A DNA stretch of 64,000 bases, from assembly GCA_000004985.1 (NCBI GenBank), contig GG738869.1; one strand, given 5' to 3'. Below the pieces are notes generated by a model. The model did not search any database. It worked only from the letters and a program-made list of their open reading frames with translations, and was not told the origin of the DNA. The translations under genes were made by a program, and so were the position numbers. Below, piece by piece: positions 9,349 to 57,487 of the stretch. This DNA comes from Naegleria gruberi (lineage: Eukaryota). How positions within the stretch are numbered: the first letter of the stretch is position 1; every line of letters starts with the position of its first letter.

Positions 9349-12300
9349 ATGCAAAACGTCAATATTTATTCATCACAAAGAAAATACATGAATCGGCAAC
9401 TTTCCAATAACCAGATCTCTTCAATGAGTCAAGACAAAACCAACAATACATCCACAACAACAGTAGGAGAACCAGCACTTCTGGATTCTTCTCCTCACCA
9501 TCAACAACAACAACTCGAAGAAGAATTAATTCCCTCTTCATCATCGTCAACAACAAGCACAACCCCTCCACTATTACTCTCCAATCATAATCATCAAAAC
9601 AACAAGAAAGAAGAACAATCACTTGTTGCTACCAACTATAACACTCCTATCAATTCATCAACTCCTCTCGAAAATTCTTCTCCTTCCTCCTCTCCAAGCA
9701 CGACAGACGCAACAAAATCTTCTTCATCACCAAGTAATTCTCCCGCCAAACCGAAATTCAATTCAAAGGAAAAAACACCACAAGAAATCTACAGTGAATT
9801 GGCACTTGGTATTGCAGGCTCGAATTTTGGTTATCATCAACAGCAGCAACAACAGCAGGTGGGAAATAATGTGAGGCACTCGATAAGTATTCAACAGACG
9901 ACGAATAGGAGAGGAATAGCCTTTGAGTTGGGACGTGATGATGATGATTGTTCGGAAGGATTTAATAAGAAGGATTTGATGGATAAGGCTGATAAGAGAA
10001 AGAGTATTTCGATTGTTAGTAGTTTGGATATTCAACAGGTAAATCCAATTAGTCTTCATAAGAAGAAGAAGAAAAATTCACCAAGTTCAAAACAACCATC
10101 ATCAAATCATCCTAAAGGAGGATTATTCATGTTTTTCAATAATCCAAGAAATTCAATTACTAAAAGATTCAGAGCAAGTGTATCGGGAAAGGAAATGGAT
10201 GATGATTTAACTAAAATTCAACAGGAAATTAATGATCATGAGAGAAGGAGAACTCTTGGTACTACTTCAGACGAGGAAGTTGACGAAGAAACCAAATCCT
10301 TCTATAACATTATTCGAAATGGTGTTAGAAGAGGTAGTTCGAAACAATTGGAAACTCCTGTGAATTCTGGAAGTTTTATGGTTTTGGATGCCTCTCCTAG
10401 GATTCAGTCCAGTGATGTAACAAGAACTGGACCAATTCAAAATGTGGCCATGTCTTTGTGGACTAAGGTTGACAGTACTATTGCATTTAGATTGATGGAT
10501 TACTGCTCCTTGTTTGAGGTGAGCTCCCTTTCTAGGTTGAATCAAGAATGGCTTTCTTTTGTGAAGGGCTATTTTAGTAACCATTGCGATCCAGAAAATT
10601 TGAGAACTTGCATGTTGCTACTCTACTTTAAGTTGCAAGGTATCTTCTCAAATTTGAGAGCAGAGGTTTCTGCTGAGGACAGACATTTGAAATCAGTGTA
10701 TAGCGTTCTATTAAGTCACAAACATCTTTTGGAGCAATCTTTGACTAATACTTCAAAGAATAGAATTAGTATTACAACATCACGAGAACTTGGACTGGGA
10801 GATTTATTTTTGAACACATACCTGAATAATCTATTCAATATTATTCCAAGAGTTGCATACTATACAGCTAGAAAGAATGAAAGGAAGGTCATTAATTTTA
10901 ACGAAATTCAATATTCCTTAACTGTAGAAATATTTTTAAGAGACGAAACAGTTGTAAATACTCTAGATACGTACGATATTGAAAGATATGTACAAAACTA
11001 TTCAGGATCATTCGCTACTCAGTTAATTGCCACCTCAATGGCCTATTTTTCTGTTTACTATCTTAAAATAGAAAACTATACTCCTGCCACAGAACCTTTT
11101 GAGCTTACTGAATATACTGAAGCAGGCACTCCAGAGGCAAGAAGAGTAACTATTTCTGGTAACACACCAACTCCAAATTCGAAAGCAGGATCGTTTTCCT
11201 CACTCAAAAATCTCAAACTTGAAAGTAATTTTGAAGACACTATTGAAATGTTCAGAAGTCCCCGTACTCCTGCTACACCATCATCCAAAAACAATAGCTT
11301 CATAATGGACAAGGGAGAGTTCTTAATTGCCAAAGGTTCAGGTACAACCAAAAAGAGAAGAGAAAGTTTGGCTAGTGAGACTGGATCGGTCTCCTCCTCA
11401 ATCTCTACTCCTAATATTAATTTTAATTTCATTGAAATTATTCCGAAAGATAGTTCAGAGTTGGGCTATTTATTCCTTCTAGAATTCTTCAAGATTCTTT
11501 CAAAGTATATTAGGAGATTAACATTCAGCCGCAAACCTCATGCATCTGAAAGATTTAGAATGGACTATTTCTCTACAATGTCTCTATCACCTAATTGTGA
11601 GACCTTCTCAGCATTTATGACTAATGAAGAGGATGAATTTAAGAAAAATTCTAAAAAATTCAAAAGTGTTTGCAATGCTATTGCAACCTCAGAGGCACTA
11701 ACATGCTTAGTTATGGGTGGAAAGGAATGGAATCAAGAGGATGTCAACATTCTCTTCAATTCCCTTAGTAGGGCCGGTGATGAAATTAAACGAGATAACT
11801 ACAAAATAGATTTGATTCTTCCATGTTTGCTGGAAATTAGTGAAAGATGCACCAAGCCAAAACTGAGACCATCCATCTTCCTTCCTCCACCAACCAGTGA
11901 GAGTCTTGTCAGCGAAATTAATATTGCAGAAATTCATGAAAGTGTCACATCTCCTAGAATTCAAACAGACAGCATACAACCTTCCTTTGTTGTTTCCTCA
12001 TCTGGAGACTCACAAATTTCAAATGATTTTGATGAAGGTATTGTAAGATGGCCAAAACATTTAAAGCGTGTGTATTTGACAGATATCAATGAAAACTTGA
12101 TATTCCATGAAAGATGGTTGAATGGAAGTCCAGAAATGACTTCACTACATTTTAATTTTTCACTTTCTTCTCCTATTAATTTTGATGCTATTTGCCTTTG
12201 CTCAAATCTCAGATATTTACACATTTCAGATTGTGTATTGGGAAATAATAAGAATACAGCTCTGAATTTAATTAATGCAATCAAGAAATTAGACAAACTA

Positions 12301-30614: not shown

Positions 30615-33600
30615 ATGTCACAACATCAAACAACACTACAACTACTCATTTCCCTGTTTTTATTTTTGATTGTTGTTCAATGCACAGCATCAACAATGGA
30701 ATACAATACTAGTCTATCATTTGGTATTGATACACTGGTTGGCTATGATCCGAATAATGGAAATAATCTTCCTTCAATATATGCCAATTTGAATCCCAAT
30801 AATTTGACATTTGGCACGAATACAAAGATAATGTTCATGTATGATGGTGTTAGGAATGCCATCATGAAACTTGATCTGAAAACAAATCTGATTTCGAAAT
30901 TAATTGATTTAGAATATAGAGCGCTCTCAATATTAGAAACTAGAAATGGAATTTTATTTACAGATGCTCAAGGAAGGAATATTAAAATGTTGGCCAATGA
31001 TTCAATTTCTATTGTGGCAGGAACATTAACAACAGGATATTCAGGTTTGTTGATCTTGGGATGATTTTATTTTAAACTAATATTTGATATTAAAAGGGGA
31101 TGGAATTGCAAACGAAACGAAACTAAACTCTCCAAAGGGATTAATTGAGGATGGTAATGGAAATATTTATTTCATCGATTACTATAATTATAGATTGAGG
31201 AAATTATCAGGTAATATGATTTCAACAATAGCTGGTGATGGAAAGAATGAAAATAATGGAGATGGAGGATCAGCTCTAAAGGCCAACTTGAAAAATCCTT
31301 CCAATCTGGCACTAATTGACCACAACTTATACATTTTATGTGATACAGCAATAAGGAGAATTGATTTAATCACAAGTAAGATTTACAGTTTCTCAGTTGA
31401 AAGTCCATTCAAATTTACTGGAATTTTCCAAGCCAATGGAACAATTTTTGTTCACTCTGCTACTGCAATTGGTAAAATTCAATCCAATCAGAAGATTTCT
31501 ATCATTTCCGGATCAGCATCTGTATCGGGTCCTTCTGTAAATAATATTCCAGCAATTGATGCCTTATTCAAACAAATAAGTTCAATTGGGGTACTTTCGT
31601 CTGAGTTAGGGGATGTTATTTATGTTTATGATTCTTCAAATAATGATATTAGGGTTATTAATGAGACTCGTTTTATTAATCTGTTGGCTGGTGTTAAATC
31701 TTTGAAAGCAAATGTGGATTTATCGGCTCCTTATTTTATTTCTAATGATCCAATTGGACTTGCTGAGCTGATTAATGGTGATTTAGCCTTTTCGCATTCA
31801 GGTGGAATTGCCAAATATTCCAATGGATTGATAACAAACATAGTCGAATCTTCTAGCCCAATATTAGGAATTGCTTTCTATGAGAAAGAGGATGAGCTCT
31901 ATTATGTGGATTCGAACTCAAAAATTAAAAAGCTCAAAGATGGAGAAACGATACACGTAGCAGGAGCATCGAATGGACAAAATGCAGACAACATTCCAGC
32001 ATCAAAAGCATTACTTTCCTCTCCGTATGGAATTTCAATAGATCAAAGCAATGGAGACATTTATTTCACTGAACAATCAGGAAATAGAATACGAAAGATT
32101 TCTCAAGGAATTTTAACAACAGTTTGTGGAAATGGTCAAGCAGGAGATTCTGGAGATAAAGGGGAGTCCATTAAGGCACTAGTGAATAATCCAAGTGGAA
32201 TTCAGTTTACACAAAATGGAGAGATTTATTTCGCTGATTCAGGTAATAATCGTATTCGAAAGATTGTGAACGGTACCATTAACACAGTTGCTGGGGCAAA
32301 TGTTTGTAATGCTAAGGAAGGATCAAAAATGGCCACTGAAACGGTGTTGAGAAATCCAACTTTCGTTTATGTCTATCCGAATGGTGATTTTCTCATAACA
32401 GAAACAAACTCTCATTTGGTGAGAAGAGTTTCAAAAGGATTTATTTACACTATTGCAGGTACTGGACTATCTGGAGAGGGACCTGATTCAGTTCTGGCTC
32501 TTCAATCAGCTTTAACAAGTCCCAAGTCAATCATTCATTCATTTTCAATGAAACGAGTTGTACTAGTTGATAAGACCAATAGAGTGAGAATCTTAACTCC
32601 TTATTGTGAAGAGGGATATGTATTAGATGTTTATGGAGCATTCTGCATTCCTTTCTGTTTTGGAATTCTTGCAAATGATACAAATACTTGCTCTGGAAAG
32701 GGAGAATGTTCTTCATTCAACAGATGTAATTGTGCAGCATCCTATGGAGGAGAACAGTGTAATATTTCTAAATGTTTTGGAGTATTGGCAACTGACTCAA
32801 AGACATGCAGTGGAAGAGGAAAATGTTTGGATGGAATTTGTGATTGTGGAGGTAAATTCATTGGAACTAATTGTGAAATTCCCATTTGCTATGGAAAAGC
32901 TTCAAACGAGAGTGAAGTTTGTGGCGCTCATGGAAAATGTTCTAATTGGAATACGTGCGAATGTTTGGATAAGTATTCAGGCAGTTCGTGTCAATATCCT
33001 ATTTGTTTCGGCATTGCTTCAACCAGCCCTACTGTTTGCAGTGGAAGAGGAGTATGTACAGGACCAGATTCTTGTAATTGTCAATCTGGATCTTCTGGTA
33101 CTATTTGTGAAGTATCGAGAGAAGAAATTGACAAACAGAATCGAGAGAGAATAATCATAATAATTAGCTCAGTTTCAGGCTCCTTATTCTTATTATTCTG
33201 CTGTATTATTTGGACAATATCGGTATTCATATTCACCAATAGAAAGCTCAACCAACGACACAATGCAGAGCTAGATATGGAAAAGAAACTTCTTGAATTT
33301 GAGTTCAATGATTCACAATCTTCAGTCAGGGAATCAGTCTACCTCTTTTCACAACACCAGAAACCATACTTGATACCAATAGAAGATATTACATTTGTTA
33401 AAAAGATTGGAATTGGAGGATTTTCAAATGTTTATTTGGGAAAGTGGAACCAGTCGTTTGTGGCTGTCAAATCTGTTGAAAATCAAGACGATAGAGCTGA
33501 TGATGTATTTGAAAAAGAAGCACAAACTTTGTGTGCCCTCAAACATCCAAATATTATCACTTTTTATGGAATTTCATTTTCAGAGAGCAGAAAATTGCTG

Positions 33601-34371
33601 ATTGTGGAATATTTTGAAAAGGGAAGTTTAGATAAGTACATTGAAGCACTCACTACAAGGAAGATTAATTGCTCTCTAGAGAAAAAGATCAATTACTTGT
33701 TGCATATTGCTAATGGAATGGCCTATCTTCACTCGTACAAACCTAATCCTATTGTTCACAGAGATTTGAAACCAGCCAATGTTTTAATGTCAGAGAATGG
33801 AATTCTCAAGATATGTGATTTTGGATTGAGTAGAAGTTTGAATTACGAAACCAAGTCAGCCATGACATCCAATATTGGAAGTTTCTATTATTTGTCTCCA
33901 GGTAAGTTGTTTTTGGGTAGTTTATAATAATTTGATCTAAATCTGAAAGAAATGTTAAATGGAAGCAATCAAAAGAAATATGCAACTGCTTTGGATGTGT
34001 TCAGTTTTTCAATCATTGCTTGGGAATTACTTTTTGAAGAGGGAAATCCATACGATTATTCCAACAGAACAAAAGTATTTTATACAATGAATGAGGAAAA
34101 ACAGCTTCGATATGAAAAACTCAGTCCATTTAATGTTCCAACTCTTGTTTCTCAAGGCCTGAGACCACCAATTCCATTCGATTCGTCCGAAAGTTGTAAA
34201 GATTGGTGTAGCTTATTCGCAACCTCTGAAAAAGAACATTATCTCATTATTTTACAATTAACTGATTTGATTAAGCGTTGTTGGGATGAAAGACCCGAAC
34301 AGAGACCTTCATTTATAGAGATTGTGAACATATTATCTCAATTCGAAACTTATTTCTCACATGATTTGTAA
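30615..34371 (+). CDS. Receptor-type protein kinase: signal peptide, NHL beta-propeller repeats, tenascin-type EGF repeats, TM helix, TKL-like kinase; 3 exons: 30615..31044, 31097..33901, 33950..34371
   Basis: Three ORFs are joined by two introns: 31045..31096 (GTTTGT...AAAAG, 52 nt, phase 1, restoring GYSG|DGIANETKLNSP) and 33902..33949 (GTAAGT...GAAAG, 48 nt, phase 1, restoring the kinase YYLSP|E|MLNG, i.e. the APE motif). The protein also has a signal peptide, EGF-like C-x-C repeats, a hydrophobic TM segment and the kinase HRDLKPANV...DFG motifs. Confidence 0.75.
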
Positions 34372-34670: not shown

Positions 34671-36719
34671 TTAATCAGATAAATCTTCAAAGCATCTGCC
34701 TTCCTTTCTCATCAAATCAATGTGTGAATCAGCAACTCTGTCATCAACACCCTCAATATTCTTAATGATATCCTTGATGACATTGTAAGCTCTTGTTCCA
34801 AAACCTGAAACACCTCCACACAAATATAAATTTCCTTTTGATCTACTGAGCATTTGATAAACCTTTTCCTTGTTTTCATAAATGGCATCAGCAATCATCT
34901 TTCTGTCAGTTCCAGAGTAAGCAAAATGAGATTCAGAAATGAGACCATCCTTAACAGCTTGTTCAATTTCCTTCTTGTAAATAACTTCTTCAGGTCCTCT
35001 AACACCATAGAACAAAATTGAAGGACCGAATTTGATGTTTGGATTTCTCATTTGTTGAACTCTTCTTTCATCAATAAATCCTCTGAATGGAGCAATACCT
35101 GTACCACCAGCAATACAAACGATTGGTGTTTCAGGATTTTCTGGAAGTCTGAATGAAGAAGTTCTGATAACAACAGGACATGCAATAGATGGTTTGCACT
35201 CTGACAAGTAGTTGGAACACAATCCAAAGAATGTCTTGGTATTATCAATTGGCTGTACAAGTGGACCGTAGGTAATTCTCAAAATTTTTCCTTCTCCTCT
35301 CTTCTTTCTTTCTTCATTTTCTAATCTAGATGAAGAAATTGAATAGTATCTTGGTTGATTCTTTGGTAAGATACCAATGAGATCTTGCCATGTCACCTTA
35401 ATGGATGGGAATTTCTCTAACATATCTACAATATTTAACATTTTGTTCTTGACTTCAGTCAAGTATTTTTCACTCTTCCAAGATTCCAATGTAGCTTTTT
35501 CTTCGGCATTGGTTGCCTTGTCTGCCAAGAAACCTAATAAAGAAGGAGAAACGACACCATTCAAATCAAAGAATTGAGACATGGCCTGATATAAAGTAAT
35601 TGGGCTATCTCTAGTGGCAATAAATGGTGGCAATTCAATACTACATGTTGGTGTTTCAAGAGTAAAGATAATTTCCTCCATAGGCAAATCCAATTTCAAG
35701 AAACTTTCCAATCTTTTAACAAGAGATGATGGATTGGTTGGGAAAATGCAAATATGGTCACCAGTCTCATAATCTATTGGAGTTCCTTCAATATCAAACT
35801 CAATCTCAAGACGTAATCTATTGGATTCTGGACATAAATTCTTTACGGATTGAATCTTCAATGGGAATGGGTTCTTTGGTGAAACTGGTGAGCTGGCATC
35901 ATAGGAACGAACAAATTGTCTTAACTTGTCTCTATATTTGGCTTTATCTAGAAGACGAAAAAAATGCTTGCCATTTGTTGTCACACCTTCTCCCATTTGA
36001 CTTGTTTCACTTTGAGATGGTACTTGGCATGAAGATGCAGTAGATGAATTGGATGTTTCATTTTCCTTTTGTTTCAAGAATTCAATAAATTCATTCTTCC
36101 AATTTTCAAAATCAGTTTCAATACCTTCTTCACCACCATCGTCTCCTTCACCTCTCTTGAATTGTAAATCACTTCCCAAATCCTTTAAACGTTGTTCCAT
36201 TCTTTTACCAACAGCTTGATATCTTTCAGGGAAGTTGGCAGAATTTCCCAAACCAAAAATTGCATAATTTGGTGCATTGTTTTTGAAATCCAAACTCTTA
36301 GTATTGTCACTCATAAAAAATTCATAAAATGGTTTAGCATTGTCAGTTGGTTGACCTTCACCGTAGTTTGACATGATAAATAATACAATATTATACAAAT
36401 CATTTTTTTGTAAGCCAAATGACAAGGCCCTTTCTGGTTCAATATCACTCAAATCAACAACTTTAACACTTGACAAGAATGATGGATTTTTCTCCATCAA
36501 TTCGCTCTTCAAACCTTCAGCAAACATTTGTGCAGTTCCCGTTTGTGACCCATAACAAATTAACAAGTTTGTCTTGGACATGTCGACAAGACTTGCATGG
36601 AACTGTCTCATACATGCTGCTTTAAAAACACTTGTATTGGTATTCATTCTATGTTGACCAGAGCATGCATTGCGAAGTAATACACTGCAAGCATTCATTT
36701 TCAGTTTATTCATCATCAT
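34671..36719 (-). CDS. Diflavin (FMN + FAD/NADPH) oxidoreductase of the cytochrome-P450-reductase/CysJ type, with a predicted N-terminal mitochondrial presequence
   Basis: The ORF-track start at 36725 is GTG right after a TAA; the first ATG is at 36719. The protein has a flavodoxin domain (LICYGSQTGTAQMFAEGL), an FAD-binding RYYSISSS motif and an NADPH-binding C-terminus (VCIAGGTGIAPFRGF ... LYLCGGVSG). The first ~48 residues are basic and S/T/N-rich with no acidic residues. Confidence 0.8.
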   Translation of the reverse strand: MMMNKLKMNACSVLLRNACSGQHRMNTNTSVFKAACMRQFHASLVDMSKTNLLICYGSQTGTAQMFAEGLKSELMEKNPSFLSSVKVVDLSDIEPERALSFGLQKNDLYNIVLFIMSNYGEGQPTDNAKPFYEFFMSDNTKSLDFKNNAPNYAIFGLGNSANFPERYQAVGKRMEQRLKDLGSDLQFKRGEGDDGGEEGIETDFENWKNEFIEFLKQKENETSNSSTASSCQVPSQSETSQMGEGVTTNGKHFFRLLDKAKYRDKLRQFVRSYDASSPVSPKNPFPLKIQSVKNLCPESNRLRLEIEFDIEGTPIDYETGDHICIFPTNPSSLVKRLESFLKLDLPMEEIIFTLETPTCSIELPPFIATRDSPITLYQAMSQFFDLNGVVSPSLLGFLADKATNAEEKATLESWKSEKYLTEVKNKMLNIVDMLEKFPSIKVTWQDLIGILPKNQPRYYSISSSRLENEERKKRGEGKILRITYGPLVQPIDNTKTFFGLCSNYLSECKPSIACPVVIRTSSFRLPENPETPIVCIAGGTGIAPFRGFIDERRVQQMRNPNIKFGPSILFYGVRGPEEVIYKKEIEQAVKDGLISESHFAYSGTDRKMIADAIYENKEKVYQMLSRSKGNLYLCGGVSGFGTRAYNVIKDIIKNIEGVDDRVADSHIDLMRKEGRCFEDLSD

Positions 36720-37359
36720 CTTCACTTAGTGGATGTAGTAACAGATGTGTGTGTGGATGTATTTTTTTTGAATCTTTAATTGTTCCTTCATCAATTATTG
36801 ATTCTTTTCATATAATATTATCATCGGGATGATGATTCATTCCTTTTGAGCAATTATGAGAATATTCAAATGCATGTATGTGTTTTATCTGAACGCACTA
36901 ATGGATTCTGAACTCTATTAATTTCTTTAATTGGCACTCGTAAAATCTTTAAATCTGTAGAGGGAGATGAAGAAAAAACAAGTCCCGTTACCCCTCATCT
37001 TCAATTTATTACCATCTCTTGTGTGAGTCATAGGCTGTCATCCGTTCAAGCAATTCTAATGAACAATGTTGTAGAAACAAGCAAAAATGAAGACCATTAA
37101 AGGAAACTAGTAATTTTTGGCGGGAGGTGTATGAAAGCTCTATTGGTACGCACAAATGGGTTTACCACCAATTCTGAACAAAAAAACATTGAAAAATAAT
37201 AAAACTCACAAATGGTGAATCTATTTCAATTAGACAATAAAGTAGCTGTCGTTAGCTGGATGTGTCGTAAGAGAATCTTTTGTTGGCTTTAAATATTCAC
37301 ATTTCTTCTTGTCACTTTGATCAACTAATAACAAAAAAACAACAACACACAACAACAAG
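36720..37359. promoter_or_regulatory. Shared, divergent 5' intergenic region between the diflavin reductase (-) and HCP (+)
   Basis: The two start codons face away from each other, 640 bp apart. The region has no credible ORF and is AT-rich with A-runs before both ATGs. Confidence 0.3.
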
Positions 37360-39297
37360 ATGATCAGACAATCTGCTTCTAAGCTTTTCTCTAGAGTTGC
37401 TTCCAAATCCATGCAAGTTAATGCTGGAAAGAATTTGGCTGCCTGTTCCATGATCAAGATGAATCATCAAACAACCACTCAAGCTAGAATGAATTTCTCA
37501 CAACAATACAATATGAATAGATCTGATAAGATGTTCTGTTTCCAATGTGAACAAACACAAAATGGTACTGGTTGCACAACTGTTGGTGTTTGCGGTAAGA
37601 CACCATCAGTTGCTGCATTGCAAGATTTAACCATTTATCAAACTCGTCAATTGTGTGCTTTGGCTACTTTGGCCAAGAGACAAGGATCTGTTGTTCCTTC
37701 ATTGATGGAAAAGGTTGATGACTTTGTTTTGAGAGCCATGTATAGTACTTTGACTAATGTCAATTTTGATGAACTCAGATTTGTCGAATTTTTGAAGGAA
37801 GGTTCTGAATTGACTCAACAAGTCAAGAAGGAAATGTTAGGTGGAAAGATTCCACAAGAATTCTCTGAATTGCTCACTGTCACTGAAACTGATGCTCAAT
37901 TCGATGCCATCTTGAGTCAAGCTACTTCTGCCACAGATGAAGCTACTGGAAAATTGATTGATATGGGTAAATCTGTTGGTGTTCAACCACATCACAAACA
38001 TTATGGAGCTGATACTAATGCTCTCCGTGAATTGCTCCAATATGGTCTCAAGGGTTTGTGTGCTTATACTAAGGAAGCTTCTCTCTTGGGTAAGAATGAT
38101 GCTGCTGTTGTCAATGAATTCATTAGAACTGCCATGTGTACTTTGGCTGGTGTTTCACCTGATGGTAAGGTTGACCCATACAATGCTAATGATATCATTG
38201 GTATGGCATTGAAGTGTGGTGAAGTCAACGTTAGAACTATGCAATTGATGGACGAAGGTGCTTTTGAACGTTTTGGTCAAATGGCTCCAAACAATGTTAG
38301 AACTACTCCACTCCCAGGTAAATCAATCTTGGTTTCTGGTCACGATATGGGTGATTTGTTGGCCATTTTGAAGCAAACTGAAGGAAAGGGTATCAATGTT
38401 TACACTCACGGTGAATTGTTGCCAGCTCATGGTTATCCTGAGCTCAGAAAGTTCAAACACTTAGTTGGTAACTATGGTGGTGCTTGGCAACAACAAAAGA
38501 TTGAATTCTCCAACTTTAAGGGTGCTATTGTCATGACTACTAACTGTATCATTGAACCAAGAAAGCAATATAAGGATAGAATCTTCACTACCTCAGTTGT
38601 TGGTTGGCCAGGTGTCACTCACATTAAGAATAGAGATTTCTCTGCTGTTATTGAAAAGGCTTTGGCTACAGAAGGTTTCCCAGAATCATTTGCCAATGAA
38701 AAGGTTGAACATGTCACAACTGGTTTCGGTCATCGTACAGTTTTGAGTCTTGCTGATGTTATTGTTAATGCTGTTAAGAGAGGTGATATTAAGAGATTCC
38801 ATCTTATTGGTGGTTGTGATGGTACTGAAGGTGAAAGATCATACTATAAGAATATTGCTACATCCCTTCCAAAGGATAACGTTATCCTCACTTTAGGTTG
38901 TGCCAAGTACAGATTCAACAAGATTGACTTTGGTACTATTACTACTCAAGATCCAAAGACTAATTCTGATGTTGCCTTGCCAAGATTGTTGGATGTTGGT
39001 CAATGTAACGATGCTTATGGAGCTGTAGTTATTGCTAGTGCTTTGGCTGAAGCTTTCGGTACTAAGGATCTCAACCAATTGCCACTCAACTTTGTTATTT
39101 CTTGGTTCGAACAAAAGGCTGTTGTTATTTTCTTGACAATGCTCCACCTTGGTTTGAAGAATGTCAGAATTGGTCCAAACTTGCCTGCCTTTATTCCTCC
39201 ATCCACTCTCCAATTCCTCGTTGAAACCTTCAAGTTACATCCAATCAATGCTAAGGATCCTGTTGCTGATATGGAAATGATGCAAAAGGGACTTTAA
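37360..39297 (+). CDS. hcp: Hybrid-cluster protein (prismane / hydroxylamine reductase, Hcp) with an N-terminal extension resembling a mitochondrial targeting peptide
   Basis: 645-aa intronless ORF with a verified ATG. It has the class-1/2 N-terminal Cys motif CFQCEQTQNGTGCTTVGVC (C-x2-C-x8-C-x5-C) and Hcp similarity throughout. About 55 residues precede the conserved MFCFQCEQ and they are basic and amphipathic (MIRQSASKLFSRVASKS...). Confidence 0.9.
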   Translation: MIRQSASKLFSRVASKSMQVNAGKNLAACSMIKMNHQTTTQARMNFSQQYNMNRSDKMFCFQCEQTQNGTGCTTVGVCGKTPSVAALQDLTIYQTRQLCALATLAKRQGSVVPSLMEKVDDFVLRAMYSTLTNVNFDELRFVEFLKEGSELTQQVKKEMLGGKIPQEFSELLTVTETDAQFDAILSQATSATDEATGKLIDMGKSVGVQPHHKHYGADTNALRELLQYGLKGLCAYTKEASLLGKNDAAVVNEFIRTAMCTLAGVSPDGKVDPYNANDIIGMALKCGEVNVRTMQLMDEGAFERFGQMAPNNVRTTPLPGKSILVSGHDMGDLLAILKQTEGKGINVYTHGELLPAHGYPELRKFKHLVGNYGGAWQQQKIEFSNFKGAIVMTTNCIIEPRKQYKDRIFTTSVVGWPGVTHIKNRDFSAVIEKALATEGFPESFANEKVEHVTTGFGHRTVLSLADVIVNAVKRGDIKRFHLIGGCDGTEGERSYYKNIATSLPKDNVILTLGCAKYRFNKIDFGTITTQDPKTNSDVALPRLLDVGQCNDAYGAVVIASALAEAFGTKDLNQLPLNFVISWFEQKAVVIFLTMLHLGLKNVRIGPNLPAFIPPSTLQFLVETFKLHPINAKDPVADMEMMQKGL

Positions 39298-39712: not shown

Positions 39713-42700
39713 ATGGCGAAACGATCGTTCACTGATTTGCTAATTGTTACCTTGACTTCCGATGATCATTTCGAAGATATCACCATACCAGAGCACGATT
39801 GTGATTTATTGGCATTAAAACATTTTCAAAAAGTTGCAGCAGAACGTATCGAAAGAAATGAACAAATTTATTCTCATGTTTCCCATCTAAAATCAAGAAA
39901 TCACTCAAATAATTATGAAAAAATTACTAAAAATCCATTTCCGGACAATGATTGTAAATTAGCTTTTTTCAAGGTTTTAAAGTATGATGGCTTGTTGTTG
40001 CAGTTTGCATCGAATGAATTGAGAAATGATCGTGATGTTGTTTTGAGAGCTGTTAAAGAAAATGCAGGTTCTATCGAGGTGGTGAGTGAGGAATTGAGAA
40101 GTGATAGGGAATTTGTGGAGAAGGTTGTTATGATTGCTAAAGATAGAACGAGTTTGTCCACAAAAAGTTTTTTCAAATTTCTTGACAAGTTTCATGATGA
40201 TGAGTTGATTGTTAGAAAGGTGGTGGAGAAACATGTAAATTCTCTCGAGTTTGTATCACCAAGATTGAGAAATGATAGGTAGGTTGTTTAAATATCATTA
40301 CCAAAAGCAAATTCATACACAGAGAGATTGTTTGGAATGCTGTTAAAAGAAATGGATCATCTCTTCAATTCGTTCCAGAACATTTGAAAGATAGAGAATT
40401 GGTTATGCTTGCTGTGAAAACTGATTCCCAGGCACTTCTATTTGCACCAATAGAGTTTTTGAAAGATAAAGAAATTATTTCAAGAGCTGCTAAATTATCA
40501 GGACTTGCTATTAAATATGCCCACACAGAACTTAAAAACGACAGAGAGTTTGCTTTAGAGATGGTAAAGTTGAGAGCACTTGGTTATAATTATCTTTCGG
40601 AAGATCTAAGAGGAGATCGGTAAGTTGTTTGTGAAACTGTTGCAACAGTAATGAACGGAAAATTAGGGAAATTGCATTGGCAGCTATGAAGTCAATGCCA
40701 ACTTGTCTAAGAATGGCACCTAATCACATCAAAGATGATTTTGAAATTGTTTCCATTGCGGTTACGAAAAATTTATCAGCTCTTGTGTTTTCCTCACAGA
40801 GATTCAAAGATGATACAGACTTTATCTATAACTGTGCTTCAACTGCAAGTCAAATTATTTATTTTCTGAATAATCATGAATCTCTATTAGTAACTAATCG
40901 AGATTTCTGTTTACGGCTCATAGAAAAGAGTTGTGGATATGATTGTTTTAGAAATGCTCGAGATTTTGTGAAATTGGATAAGGAACTATGTCTGAAATTC
41001 ATACAAATACATCCAGATTGTTTGGAAGATGTTAAATGTGAAGATATTCTAAATGACAAACAACTCTTAATGGATTTATTGCCACACAGTGAAAAAATTC
41101 TTCTTCAAATTCCAAATGAGCTTTGTAATGATAGAGAACTCATGATGTGGGCATCGAAAATTCATGACAATGCTCTAAAATTTGCCTCTGAAGAGCTTTG
41201 TGCTGATAGAGAGTTTGTAAATGAGGCATTGCTTTGTGATTTTGGTAATTTTGAGTATTTATCAGAGGAGTTGAGAAGTGATAGAGAGTTAGTGGAAAAT
41301 ATTGTAAAAATTGATGGTTTCAATGTTCAATTTGTACCAGAATTATTTAGAAACAATAGAGAACTAATCATTACTTCAATCAGAAATGCATTCTCAGATA
41401 TTTCTCCATACTTAGGATATCAGTTGAAGGAAGATAGAGATATTATTTTGGAATCTGTGAAAAGATCTGGCATTATAGAAAATCTTCTACACGAGTTTAG
41501 AGATGATAGAGAAATTGTAATGATGGGAATTCAACAATTTGGACCAGAATTTCGATATGCTTCCAAGTTTTTACGTAGCGATAGAGAATTGGCATTAATT
41601 GCCATTAGAAACTTGTGCACTTTAGAGCATATTCCCAAGGAAATATTAGATAGAAAACTTGCCTATGAAGCTTGTAAACGTTCGGCCTTTAATTTAAAAT
41701 TTGCCTCTGAGTATAGAGAGGATGAACTAATTGTTCTTTCTGCATTAAGCAATGAAAATGGGGGTTTATATACCAAATATGTCGGTGAGCGGTTGAAGAA
41801 TGACAGAGATTTTATATTGAAAGCTTCCAAACTTCAACCTAGTATTATTGCTCATATTTCGACTGAGCTTCTCCAAGATAGAGAAATAATCATAAATGCA
41901 CTTTCGCATGATGGAAATGTACTTGCTCATCTACCAGAGGAATTCAAGAGTTGTAGAGAATATGTGGAAATAGCTGCTAACTCAAACCCACATTCACTTA
42001 AATACGCATCAGAAGATTTGAAGCAGGATCCAGAGTTGTTATATAAGGCAATTGCAACAGGGATTGCCAACTCTTTAGTTTCTGAACAATTTTTGGAGGA
42101 TGCTGATGAGTCAACTATACAAAAATGTATTGAAAATGGAGTTTCACTTCGTAGTTTTCCTAAGTCTTTAACCAGTAATAGAAACTTAGTTATTAAGGCT
42201 GTAAATATTAATATGGAGAATCTTAGATATGCATCCAAGGATCTAATTAACAAGGAACTGATTATGGAAATTTCACCAAAAAATTTTGATATATTACTAC
42301 TTCCAATCAAATGGAGAAGTGACAAAGATATTGCTTTAAAGGCTTTGGAAATGAATGGAAAATCAATAATATATATTTCTGATGAGTTGAAAAATGAATT
42401 TAAGCACAACAAGGAAATCCTATTGAAAGCAATGAAAACAGATAGCATTCCATTCCTTTATGCGAGCGATGATTTACAAAACGATCGTGATTTTATTTTG
42501 GAATCTGTTTCAACAAATGGCTTGGTATTGAGATATGTTGCATCCCATTACAAAGAAGATAGGGAAGTAGTTTTAAAGGCAGTTAAAAATCATGGAAATT
42601 CAATTCGTTACGGAGCCAGACATTTCATGAATGATAGAGAAATCATGTGGAATGCAGTTCAAAACTTGGGAGCCAAAATTCTTCCGTGCAATCCATTAAT

Positions 42701-43019
42701 TTATGGCTCCTTTGAAATACGAAGTGACCGTGAGCTAGTTCTAGAAGCCGTTCGCCATGATTATCACTCCCTTGAATATGTTGTCATTGAATTATTAAGC
42801 GACGAAGAATTCATGACGAAATGCGTGGAAATTAATATTAATTCTCTAATTTATGCTCACTACCAATTAAGATACAATGTAGATTTTCTGAAACGATTGA
42901 ACAAGACAGATATGATCAGAGAAGACACTGATTTACACAACAAAATAGATATTGAAGGACTATTAGGATACAATCCAAAACTTAAAGATTTGAATATTAT
43001 TGATAGAGCTGAAATTTAA
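39713..43019 (+). CDS. DUF4116-repeat protein (about 1071 aa), 3 exons: 39713..40278, 40323..40619, 40667..43019
   Basis: It has more than 25 tandem repeats of the unit ...A(L/I)xYAS.ELR.DRE(F/I)VL.AV..NG.... Two introns (40279..40322, GTAGGT...CACAG, 44 nt; and 40620..40666, GTAAGT...AATTAG, 47 nt) both split the Arg codon of LR(N/G)D-R-EI in phase 2. Splicing restores continuous repeats across ORFs 39713, 40384 and 40677. Confidence 0.7.
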
Positions 43020-55046: not shown

Positions 55047-56533
55047 TTATTGAGATTGTTTTACAGCTCTTACAGTTTGAGCTAATCTTTTCATCTCACT
55101 TAATTGATTAGAACATGATTTGATAATACTATTCTGTCTATCAAAAATTCCTCTCAAAGTCATATCACGAGCTGGTGGCAATGGTTGTGAATATTCGGTA
55201 ACAATTGTTGGTTGAGGCTCAAATGTATTGAAATGTTGAGAAAAGTAGGATGGTTCAGTGGTGATGGTTGGTTTATCATCCAATTCAATATCATTTGATT
55301 GTGGAATTGATTGTGACTCAAATGAAATTAAATCAACATTTGATTGGGCTTCACTTGGAGCTTGTGAAATGGCATCATCATTATCAATGACATCAAATTC
55401 TTCATCTTCAAAATTTACATCACCTTCCAATTTTCTCTTACTCAACATTAATTCATATTCACCCAAAAGTTTACTGTAAATTCCACCAATAACCATGGAA
55501 GGCAAAGCAACAATCACAATACCAGACAAGATGGTCATGATAGCAATAATTCTTCCCAAAACTAAGAGTTTGGTTCTTAATAAATGTTAAATTAATGAAT
55601 TAACATACCTGTAACTGGAGCCATGTCACCATAACCAACTGTAGCAATGGTAACAACGCTGTACCACATACAAATTAAAATATTTGAAAATGGTGAAGGT
55701 GTACCATCTGGTCTTAACCATTGTCCAGATTTGAGATCATATTTTCCACGTTCAGCATAATAAACAAGAGTACTACAAATAAGAGCACCCATAAATATTA
55801 AAACAGAGATTGATAAGAGCATATCCATAGATCTTCTCAATGAAACAATAAGCAATTGAAATTTAGCAGAATATCTTGTCAATTTGATAAGTTTTAAAAG
55901 TTTTAAAACTCTGAAAATTGTCAAAACTTGAAGATTGACATTTAACCAAGTACTGGCATCTGCCATATAAATTATTAAATCAAAGTAAAATGGAACGAAA
56001 CTAGCAATATCAATTAAATTGGCAGGAGCTTTAACAAAATGTCTAAAATCACCCCAAGTATTTACATAAGCAGCCATTCTTGCAAAATATTCAAGCATGA
56101 AACAAACTGATAAAAATCCAGTAATAAGCAGCCACATGATTTCGAATGGGAAAAAGAATGGAAAAGATCTCAAAATTAAACATAGGGTTTGAATAACAGT
56201 CATGAGTGACGTTATCACTGTAATGATCATGGCTACATATGATGATCTAGGATGTTCCAATAATAAATATAATTTTTGTTTCCATGTTCTTTCCTTATTA
56301 CTTTGTGGAATACTCTTGATAATATTAATAGTTCTTCTACTTCGGAATAGTCTTGAATTTTCAATTACTTCCAATGTTTTCTTTTTTTCCTTTTCCTCTA
56401 ACTTGAGTTTTGCTTTGATTTCTTTTAAAGTGGTTGGTGGTTGTTGTTCGATAGCTTCCTTTTCATGCTGTGATGATGAGGAAGGCGATGCGGGTGTTGC
56501 TGTTGTTGTAGGTGTTGGCGTTGTTGTACTCAT
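55047..56533 (-). CDS. Voltage-gated K+ channel (Kv/Shaker-like 6TM), 2 exons: 55609..56533 and 55047..55561
   Basis: It has the selectivity filter TVGYGD and an S4 helix with basic residues at every third position (FRVLKLLKLIKLTRYSAKF). A 47-nt GTATGT...TCTTAG intron (55562..55608) lies directly after the pore, phase 1, restoring GDMAPVTG|V|LGRIIAIMTILSGIVIVALP (S6). The ATG at 56533 was verified. Confidence 0.75.
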
Positions 56534-56783
56534 TTTTTTAATATTTTAATCATTTGTAAAAATTATTAGATAATAAATATTAATTTGTTTTCATAAACAT
56601 TTCTGTTACTGCTTCCAAATCGAGATTATCCATGGAAATAGATGGAAGAAAGTCTTTGAGTGACCAATTCTTGCAGATCCAATAAACATGTCCTTCTTCA
56701 AACGATGGTGAAATCTTTAGGTTAAAAAAGATGACAATAATTTATGAATTAATTTTTTTTTATATTTTAAAAAGGAGAATAGC

Positions 56784-57487
56784 TTATTTCTTGGACTTCT
56801 TTTGTTGGATTCTCTTCAAGTAGAAAGCCAATTCAGCACCTTCCAAGACAATACCGTCAGCACGACCAACTTGACCTGGTCTAGATCTAATTCTAGCCAA
56901 CAATCTACCAGTGGACAATTGTTCCTTGAGGAGAGGATCAACTTCTGGAGCCTTCTTTCTATTTTCCAAAACCTTAGCCTTGGTCTTTTCGTCCATCTTT
57001 TCCAAGAGGTCTTCCTTCTTCTTACCCAAGGAGATACCGTAGGTCTTTTCGTAGAATTGCTTGAATGGAGAAGCATCAACCAAAACAACAGCACCCTTGA
57101 CGATAGCCTTAGTTCTGACCAATTCGTTGTTAGTGGCGTTGTAAACAACGTCCATGATTCTGGTTGGAGTAGACATAGCTTCAGAACCCCAAGCGAAGTT
57201 ACCGCTGTTCAATCTGAGGGCTCTAACCTTGTAGTTACCACCTCTAACTCTGACCATGGAGATCTTAGTCTTACCCATCTTGGTGTTAGCAGCAGCTCTA
57301 CCCAATTCGAACTTTCTCTTCTTTCTGTGGATCTTTCTCTTACCACCGGTAACACGCTTCTTATGGAGATCGCTCTTGGTAATACCTGGTTATTGATAAA
57401 TAGTAATGCGATGTTAAAATTGTTTATATGTTGTTGCCAGCAACAGTTGTTATTAATATTAGTAGCGAACCTCATCTACGTACCCAT
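56784..57487 (-). CDS. RPS8: 40S ribosomal protein S8 (eS8), 2 exons: 57484..57487 (ATGG) and 56784..57385
   Basis: The ORF-track start at 57305 is TTG. The frame continues upstream as ITKSDLHKKRVTGGKRKIHRKKRKFELGRAAA. The sequence aaATGG|GTACGTAG...TACTAAT...AACCAG (98-nt intron, 57386..57483) supplies M-G, giving the canonical eS8 N-terminus MGI(T/S).... Confidence 0.85.

Follow-up and report, generated by a model that had tools for sequence, protein, structure and literature searches.

Which protein supplies electrons to the hybrid-cluster protein (Hcp) of eukaryotes? To our knowledge, no electron donor has been identified for eukaryotic Hcp, and the question is raised by a locus of Naegleria gruberi in which an Hcp gene and a diflavin reductase gene stand head to head. 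The locus lies in a stretch of 64,000 nucleotides of contig GG738869.1 (GenBank assembly GCA_000004985.1), referred to here as the window; it is eukaryotic, with a G+C content of about 33%. An earlier note, made from the letters of the window alone, had proposed the two genes as a candidate Hcp-reductase module. The analysis reported here puts at about 70% the probability that Hcp and the diflavin reductase form a mitochondrial two-component reductase system, in which the reductase donates electrons to Hcp. The reading is based on detection of both proteins in the mitochondrial proteome, on assignment of the reductase to a clade of its own, and on recurrence of the divergent pair in very distant genomes. 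The features of the window are as follows.

37360..39297, plus strand: Hcp (hybrid-cluster protein) gene, 645 aa, intronless; equals N. gruberi XP_002676958.1 (public model starts at M58)
34671..36719, minus strand: diflavin reductase gene, 682 aa, intronless; equals N. gruberi XP_002677035.1 (public model starts at M48)
36720..37359, no strand: divergent spacer between both start codons, exactly 640 bp; presumed bidirectional promoter region
37360..37530, plus strand: Hcp N-terminal extension, residues 1-57, with 8 Lys/Arg and first acidic residue 56; candidate mitochondrial presequence
37537..37593, plus strand: Hcp Cys motif C60-x2-C63-x8-C72-x5-C78, class-I spacing; predicted [4Fe-4S] cubane and probable electron entry site
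36579..36719, minus strand: reductase N-terminal extension, residues 1-47, basic, first acidic residue 46, no hydrophobic anchor
34674..34688, minus strand: reductase C-terminal 'EDLSD' clade signature, standing where canonical cytochrome P450 reductase has '(x)DVWS'; FAD-stacking Trp replaced by Ser

The two genes and their mitochondrial products

Both open reading frames (ORFs) were found where the earlier note had placed them, 37360..39297 (+) and 34671..36719 (-), and the 640 bp that it gave between the two starts is exactly the spacer 36720..37359. Each ORF opens a few codons before its ATG, that of the reductase just 6 nt 5' of the first ATG. The alignments of both to their homologues are full-length and unbroken, and therefore neither gene of the window contains an intron, as had been claimed. 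The Hcp sequence printed for XP_002676958.1 in the supplement of PMC8134430 (N. gruberi NEG-M) is identical to that of the window, which identifies the strain as NEG-M. Codon usage in both genes is host-like, also in agreement with the earlier reading; set against four neighbouring genes, their relative synonymous codon usage correlates at 0.72 (Hcp) and 0.89 (reductase).

In Hcp, the Pfam domain Prismane (PF03063) extends over residues 58-628; against NF003658, the equivalog of NCBIfam for hydroxylamine reductase, the protein scores 680 bits (cutoff 367). The protein aligns end to end with the solved Hcps of E. coli, Desulfovibrio and a methanogen, its residue 58 pairing with their residue 1; the score against E. 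coli Hcp (7DE4) is 469 bits. The motifs for the hybrid-cluster ligands (His, Glu, Cys and persulfide Cys) are complete: SGHD, HGELLPAHGYP, TTNCI, GGCDG, GCAKYRF, GQCNDAY and SWFEQKA each have their counterpart in the alignment with E. coli Hcp. The Cys spacing C-x2-C-x8-C-x5-C is unlike the class-II spacing of E. coli in the same alignment. Class-I Hcps bind the [4Fe-4S] cluster by Cys-x2-Cys-x7-8-Cys-x5-Cys, while class II has x11/x6 spacing. Judged from these alignments, the window encodes a complete, full-length Hcp of class-I type. Hcps were also found in Echinamoeba, Salpingoeca punica, Pigoraptor, Gefionella, Netrium, Coleochaete and Closterium (P0125-P0127, P0137, P0152, P0169, P0170, P0187, P0203, P0232), with a presequence-like extension on every one that was read (all but Gefionella). 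Hcp with predicted organelle targeting is spread over most eukaryotic supergroups.

The extensions of both proteins are of about 50 residues, basic and acid-free, as first described; no acidic residue precedes position 56 in Hcp or position 46 in the reductase, and among the 26 window ORFs of at least 200 aa these two alone have their first one past position 30. The extension of Hcp is absent from bacterial Hcps, and the AlphaFold2 model shows reductase residues 1-44 as disordered. In the orthologues from an ENA metagenome contig (L001), a Logan assembly (L003), N. lovaniensis (L005) and Willaertia magna, the sequence of the extensions is not conserved but their character is kept: basic, rich in Ser/Thr/Ala, lacking acidic residues and any hydrophobic anchor. 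Presequence-like extensions are also present on the distant homologues of Hcp and reductase alike, and in the GC-richer ones these are like textbook presequences, e.g. 'MFSRIATRALSRSFAARAASSTTRRVLLRS...' of the L006 Hcp. An R-x-F motif about 10 residues ahead of the flavodoxin domain, present in the three Naegleria-type reductases compared, resembles a putative R-3 processing site. The public N. gruberi models of Hcp and reductase start at an internal Met (MFCFQCEQT... and MSKTNLLICYG...) and lack the extensions. The reductase model of Willaertia magna (P0003) begins inside the flavodoxin domain; the true ORF runs from L002:9830 and has a basic extension (9830-10000). The extensions are regarded as candidate mitochondrial presequences, and the preservation of their character in orthologues and distant homologues argues for targeting signals, as the earlier note had suggested, and against spurious sequence upstream of an internal Met.

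Both proteins were detected in a fractionation study of N. gruberi (PMC8134430; Horvathova et al. 2021), in which 946 of 4198 detected proteins were classed as putatively mitochondrial because they co-fractionated with 376 markers. In its Supplementary Data 2, Sheet 1, they occupy consecutive rows, Hcp (XP_002676958.1) with 59 unique peptides and 79% coverage and the reductase (XP_002677035.1) with 41 unique peptides and 55% coverage, and their enrichment is parallel across three gradient fractions. In the densest fraction, label-free quantification gives log2 values of 33.7 (Hcp) and 29.3 (reductase). By this rough measure Hcp is roughly 20-fold the more abundant, which fits a catalytic reductase serving an abundant client. 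The TargetP call in that study is 'other' for both public models (O89, O74), because these models begin at the internal Met and so leave the presequences out; the upstream extensions in the window settle the mismatch between the TargetP calls and the mitochondrial detection. Hcp and reductase are thus both mitochondrial, and the shared compartment proposed earlier is borne out by the proteome; import into the matrix via cleavable presequences is proposed from the N-termini. The HCP of Acanthamoeba castellanii is mitochondrial by microscopy and proteomics and is induced by hypoxia/anoxia (PMC13632651), which supports the compartment and the probable physiological setting in Naegleria.

The reductase and its clade

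The domains of the reductase are Flavodoxin_1 (54-207), FAD_binding_1 (278-468) and NAD_binding_1 (536-637) in Pfam. Its best solved relatives in a PDB search are NADPH-cytochrome P450 reductases (CPRs), with E=5e-64 (~1e-63) at 25-30% identity; MTRR follows at 1.5e-27. The database homologue matches that carry names are almost only insect and fungal CPRs. The AlphaFold2 model (pLDDT 82.8, pTM 0.77) superposes on closed-form CPR, with Foldseek TM of 0.78/0.87 to rat and human CPR, and the list of structural matches includes CPR W677 variants in the PDB. The FAD motif RYYSISSS and the catalytic Cys/Asp are kept. The C-terminus 'GRCFEDLSD' pairs with 'GRYSLDVWS' in the alignment with rat and plant CPR, so that the catalytic Asp is retained and the Trp is replaced by Ser. 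The reductase has no membrane anchor: the maximal 19-residue Kyte-Doolittle mean within its first 90 residues is 0.61 (2.03 for the true CPR P0028). It belongs to the diflavin reductase superfamily, yet fails every test for a canonical CPR.

The earlier note had called the protein 'CPR/CysJ-type', and the CPR part of that name stands. The best NCBIfam match is CysJ / SiR-FP, well under the cutoff (213 vs 668 bits) and much weaker than the match to CPR, so the protein is not close to CysJ. The likeness to an NOS-type reductase domain was not upheld, the closest relative being CPR and not NOS. Known identities were tried and rejected. Canonical microsomal CPR was set aside on account of the missing anchor, the missing FAD-stacking Trp, the replaced R597/K602/Y604 and the separate clade. 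For NDOR1/Tah18, the PDB matches favour CPR; NDOR1 is absent among the best 60 of them, and the tree held no NDOR1 sequence. Bacterial Hcr does not fit a protein that has a flavodoxin domain and lacks an Fe-S Cys cluster. The question of whether this is simply the CPR of the endoplasmic reticulum (ER) or NDOR1, which the earlier note had itself raised, was therefore answered in the negative.

Relatives of the reductase were sought by a profile search of 1.84 billion representative proteins, which returned many further sequences with a presequence-like N-terminus and the C-terminus ED[LVI][SA]D. A comparison of residues was made between 29 clade sequences and 22 W-type CPRs. The position of the FAD-stacking Trp (rat W677) holds Ala or Ser in 29/29 clade sequences and Trp in 22/22 CPRs. 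R597, K602 and Y604 (rat numbering), which bind the 2'-phosphate of NADPH in established CPR structures, are invariant or nearly so in the CPRs and unconserved in the clade. In the clade, D632 is replaced by Gly and GPGTG by AGG[C/T]G, and the C-terminus contains an invariant E-D-x-x-D (E678, D679 and the last Asp). The sequences ending in '...EDL[A/S]D', together with the derived member P0247, were set apart from all others in 93/100 neighbour-joining (NJ) bootstraps, and the W-type CPRs in 86/100. One member is from the rhizarian Lapot gusevi, and some carry the JGI name 'sulfite reductase alpha subunit-like flavoprotein'. Residues and tree together place the reductase in a distinct new clade of diflavin reductases. 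Because the stacking Trp and the 2'-phosphate triad are lost, comparison with the CPR mutant literature suggests that the coenzyme would be NADH or that specificity would be dual. The NAD(P)H-type domain named by the earlier note was confirmed; its coenzyme may be NADH rather than NADPH.

Another small group of soluble, presequence-bearing CPR-like reductases (P0246, P0248, P0257) ends in '...DVF' or '...DKFG', with Phe for Trp, and branches between the EDLAD clade and the canonical CPRs.

The gene pair in other genomes

The adjacency is not unique to this genome: a divergent Hcp pair was found at 9/11 testable clade loci, including five deeply diverged contigs. The nine linked loci are the window, L001, L003, L005, L006, L007, L008/L009, L090 and L092; the clade loci without the pair are those of Willaertia magna and P0256, and P0249/L091 stands outside the count. 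L001, L003 and L005 have reductase and Hcp as divergent neighbours with spacers of 593-615 bp, within a collinear Naegleria block of WD40, Brix, lipase, reductase, Hcp, ion channel and RPS8e genes. In the window, insertions separate Brix from lipase, lipase from reductase (a receptor kinase) and Hcp from the ion channel (DUF4116 proteins), but reductase and Hcp have stayed adjacent. The distant sampling comprised every distant clade member on a contig of several kb, with no other criterion. Its linked loci are as follows.

P0387/L006: divergent Hcp running off the contig end; spacer 670 bp
P0290/L007: divergent Hcp; spacer 586 bp
P0242/L008 and L009: divergent, intron-containing Hcp; 494 bp from the extended Hcp start
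P0334/L090: divergent two-exon Hcp; spacer 937 bp
P0391/L092: Hcp N-terminus '...AMLCRQCEQT' that runs off the contig; spacer 423 bp

Spacers in the other loci thus range over 423-937 bp. Compared with the window, the reductases of the five distant contigs are 26-29% identical and the Hcps 40-46%, and the Hcp-linked reductases fall in three subclades of the 93/100 clade.

The control was a metagenome scan with the pattern PR[YF]YSI[AS]SS, which gave 80 loci, 79 of them ordinary DVW-type and one a clade locus (L024, 5'-truncated). No Hcp was present in the flanks of the 79 ordinary diflavin reductase loci, 41 of which had more than 3 kb upstream. The divergent pair occurs at 9/11 testable clade loci vs 0/41 controls (Fisher p=1.5e-8); with lineages collapsed, the counts are 4/6 vs 0/41 (p=8e-5). 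In none of the loci examined was a ferredoxin gene linked to Hcp; the neighbour that is kept is the clade reductase. A prokaryotic origin of the pair was probed by a genome-contig scan, narrow in scope and with FMN-domain patterns only, which found no relative.

Other features of these loci are noted here. The reductase genes of L003 (6835-6895) and N. lovaniensis contain one short GTAAGT...AG intron directly after 'GTGIAPMRA', which the N. gruberi gene lacks; because of this intron in L003, the automatic model P0002 is truncated at 556 aa. An orthologous FAD_binding_4/FAD-oxidase_C gene, D-lactate or 2-hydroxyacid dehydrogenase-like, stands beside the pair in L006 (5468-6688), L007 (6218-7489) and L090 (2247-3590). 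The three are 54-63% identical to each other, they abut Hcp in L007 and L090, and there is no counterpart in the window; in the L006/L007/L090 lineage the module may include this gene as its third member. In the window, an NHL-repeat/EGF-repeat receptor-type protein kinase extends over three consecutive ORFs (30615-31064, 31084-33927 and 33952-34371), which implies short introns or frameshifts. Relative to the other Naegleria, this kinase (30615-34371) is an insertion between the lipase gene and the reductase. Two DUF4116 repeat proteins are encoded at 39713-40282 and 40677-43019, the latter of 780 aa with 13 repeats. Their genes belong to an insertion of about 16 kb that separates Hcp from the ion-channel/RPS8e genes (window 55050-57389); in L001, L003 and L005 the latter directly follow Hcp.

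Electron transfer to Hcp and its meaning

In the proposed mechanism, cleavable presequences would direct both proteins to the mitochondrial matrix. The FAD of the diflavin reductase would accept a hydride from NAD(P)H, and the electrons would be split into single ones on the way from FAD to FMN. The FMN domain would then hand them to the N-terminal [4Fe-4S] cluster of Hcp, which would pass them on to the hybrid [4Fe-2S-2O] cluster. There, NO would be reduced to N2O, or hydroxylamine to NH3, as for bacterial Hcp. The physiological setting is probably hypoxia or nitrosative stress.

The system is most likely a functional analogue, by comparison with bacteria, of Hcp-Hcr, with an unrelated CPR-type reductase. 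In both, a pyridine-nucleotide flavoprotein encoded beside Hcp feeds, or in Naegleria would feed, the N-terminal Fe-S cluster of the same Hcp core. Bacterial Hcr is an FNR-like FAD/NADH protein that lacks an FMN domain and has a [2Fe-2S] cluster at its C-terminus, whereas the Naegleria partner is a three-domain CPR-type diflavin reductase. The Naegleria genes are nuclear and divergently transcribed, unlike the E. coli operon; the Hcp is of class I (class II in E. coli), and both proteins have putative mitochondrial presequences. We know of no Hcr in association with class-I Hcps. With microsomal CPR/POR the clade shares domain order, fold and the FMN and FAD motifs, but it is mitochondrial and has no anchor, Ala/Ser for Trp and no 2'-phosphate triad. 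CysJ / SiR-FP is similar as a diflavin reductase dedicated to one Fe-S/sirohaem partner; it differs in its C-terminus, its similarity is far weaker than that of CPR, and the Naegleria system has no hemoprotein partner. GiOR-1 of Giardia (PMC3044749) is likewise a soluble FMN+FAD+NAD(P)H reductase of a mitochondrion-derived organelle without a P450 partner, but is Tah18-like, prefers NADPH and has no assigned acceptor; it was compared with the clade by description only. The Acanthamoeba castellanii HCP is also a eukaryotic mitochondrial Hcp induced by hypoxia/anoxia, but its electron donor was not identified there (PMC13632651). A search of the literature found no paper linking Hcp with a diflavin reductase. 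What is new here is an Hcp system with a different class of reductase, in mitochondria, encoded as a divergent nuclear pair across very distant eukaryotes.

Several points weigh against the reductase as the donor to Hcp. Direct transfer between the two is inferred from genomic context and the shared compartment, and the text of the Acanthamoeba HCP-HA immunoprecipitation-mass spectrometry study (PMC13632651) names no reductase partner. In Willaertia magna, Hcp and reductase are both present but on separate contigs, and the P0256 contig has no Hcp within 5 kb upstream of the clade reductase. The distant contigs L006-L008, L090 and L092 are judged eukaryotic by introns, presequences and neighbouring genes, and the trees are from a simple NJ distance method with 100 replicates. 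Among the long homologues there is no Hcp-reductase fusion, P0300 and P0319 being P450-CPR fusions and the others flavodoxin repeats. On the opposite side, two items count in favour of the pairing: a Cyanophora gene model that is reported to join HCP to a 'sulfite reductase' gene, and the JGI name of some clade members given above. Comparison of the spacer with those of L001, L003 and L005 gave A/CA-rich low-complexity k-mers and one weak 8-mer but no conserved motif, which speaks neither for nor against the co-regulation suggested by the earlier note. The shared 8-mers number six (0.29 expected) and are mostly of this low-complexity kind; the 8-mer ATGGTGAA (window 37205-37225) is common to the spacers of the window, L001 and L005 and lies about 150 bp before the Hcp ATG.

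Of the other explanations, the one that deserves most weight, though we consider it unlikely, is that the reductase is a general mitochondrial NAD(P)H donor to P450, cytochrome b5, haem oxygenase or Fe-S assembly, with Hcp one client at most and the adjacency a matter of shared hypoxia-type regulation. CPR-type reductases are promiscuous, and the mitosomal GiOR-1 is a precedent for a diflavin reductase without an assigned acceptor. Sheet 1 of PMC8134430 also lists a CYP4F-like P450 (XP_002674863.1) with an N-terminal hydrophobic segment, which could be a contaminant or a second acceptor of the reductase, and in Willaertia and one other genome the reductase stands apart from Hcp. Against a general donor, four or more deeply diverged lineages retain the pair, which was never seen with ordinary diflavin reductases, and it is difficult to account for this unless the two are specifically tied in function; the signature of the clade is conserved and distinct from that of P450-serving CPRs. 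A mitochondrial ferredoxin is the alternative donor, with the reductase then acting in another pathway that shares regulation or a chromatin domain. Ferredoxin is the sole donor so far proposed for a eukaryotic Hcp (HCP4 of Chlamydomonas), and the mitochondrial PFOR, ferredoxin and HydA of Acanthamoeba are induced along with HCP (PMC13632651). The loci examined speak against it, since the neighbour of Hcp is always the clade reductase and never a ferredoxin gene, and we regard this explanation as improbable.

It is very improbable that the adjacency is merely inherited synteny without functional meaning. The whole region is collinear among Naegleria, so that conservation within the genus proves little, and the lack of a conserved promoter motif would agree with chance; but the same arrangement recurs in contigs as diverged as the five described above, and in 0/41 controls. 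Hardly credible at all is a canonical ER CPR (or NDOR1/Tah18) whose extension is no targeting signal. In its favour, CPRs are the top matches in sequence and fold among PDB and database entries, and the public gene model begins at the internal Met. Opposed to it are the low hydrophobicity of the N-terminus (0.61 vs 2.03), the replacement of Trp677, R597, K602 and Y604 alike, the separate clade (93/100, with W-type CPRs at 86/100) and detection in the mitochondrial, not the microsomal, cluster; NDOR1 in turn lies outside the best 60 PDB matches. The two-component system of Hcp and clade reductase is accordingly preferred.

Hcp is widespread in protists and algae, and the missing donor blocks a biochemical account of the eukaryotic enzyme, of which the Acanthamoeba HCP was recently shown to be a hypoxia-induced mitochondrial representative (PMC13632651). 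The clade reductase is a specific candidate donor, located in the same compartment and genomically coupled, and the proposal is testable with two recombinant proteins. Its unusual FAD site, with neither the stacking Trp nor the 2'-phosphate triad, is of interest for flavoenzyme mechanism, and the locus is a rare case in which very distant eukaryotes share a conserved gene pair. More tentatively, and with the odds somewhat against it, the divergent pair may be a two-gene module of ancient eukaryotic standing, either passed down from an early mitochondriate ancestor or transferred between eukaryotes as a cassette, that encodes an NADH-driven mitochondrial NO/hydroxylamine reductase under hypoxia. 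If so, the clade would add to CPR, NOS, MSR, NDOR1 and SiR-FP a class of diflavin reductase that had gone unrecognised and that serves a dedicated Fe-S protein, and the pair would rank among the very few gene adjacencies that eukaryotic supergroups have in common. Both Naegleria fowleri and Acanthamoeba are pathogens that face host NO. Among the animal sequences returned by the present searches there was neither an Hcp nor a Trp-less clade reductase, and for both reasons the module could matter for virulence or as a drug target.

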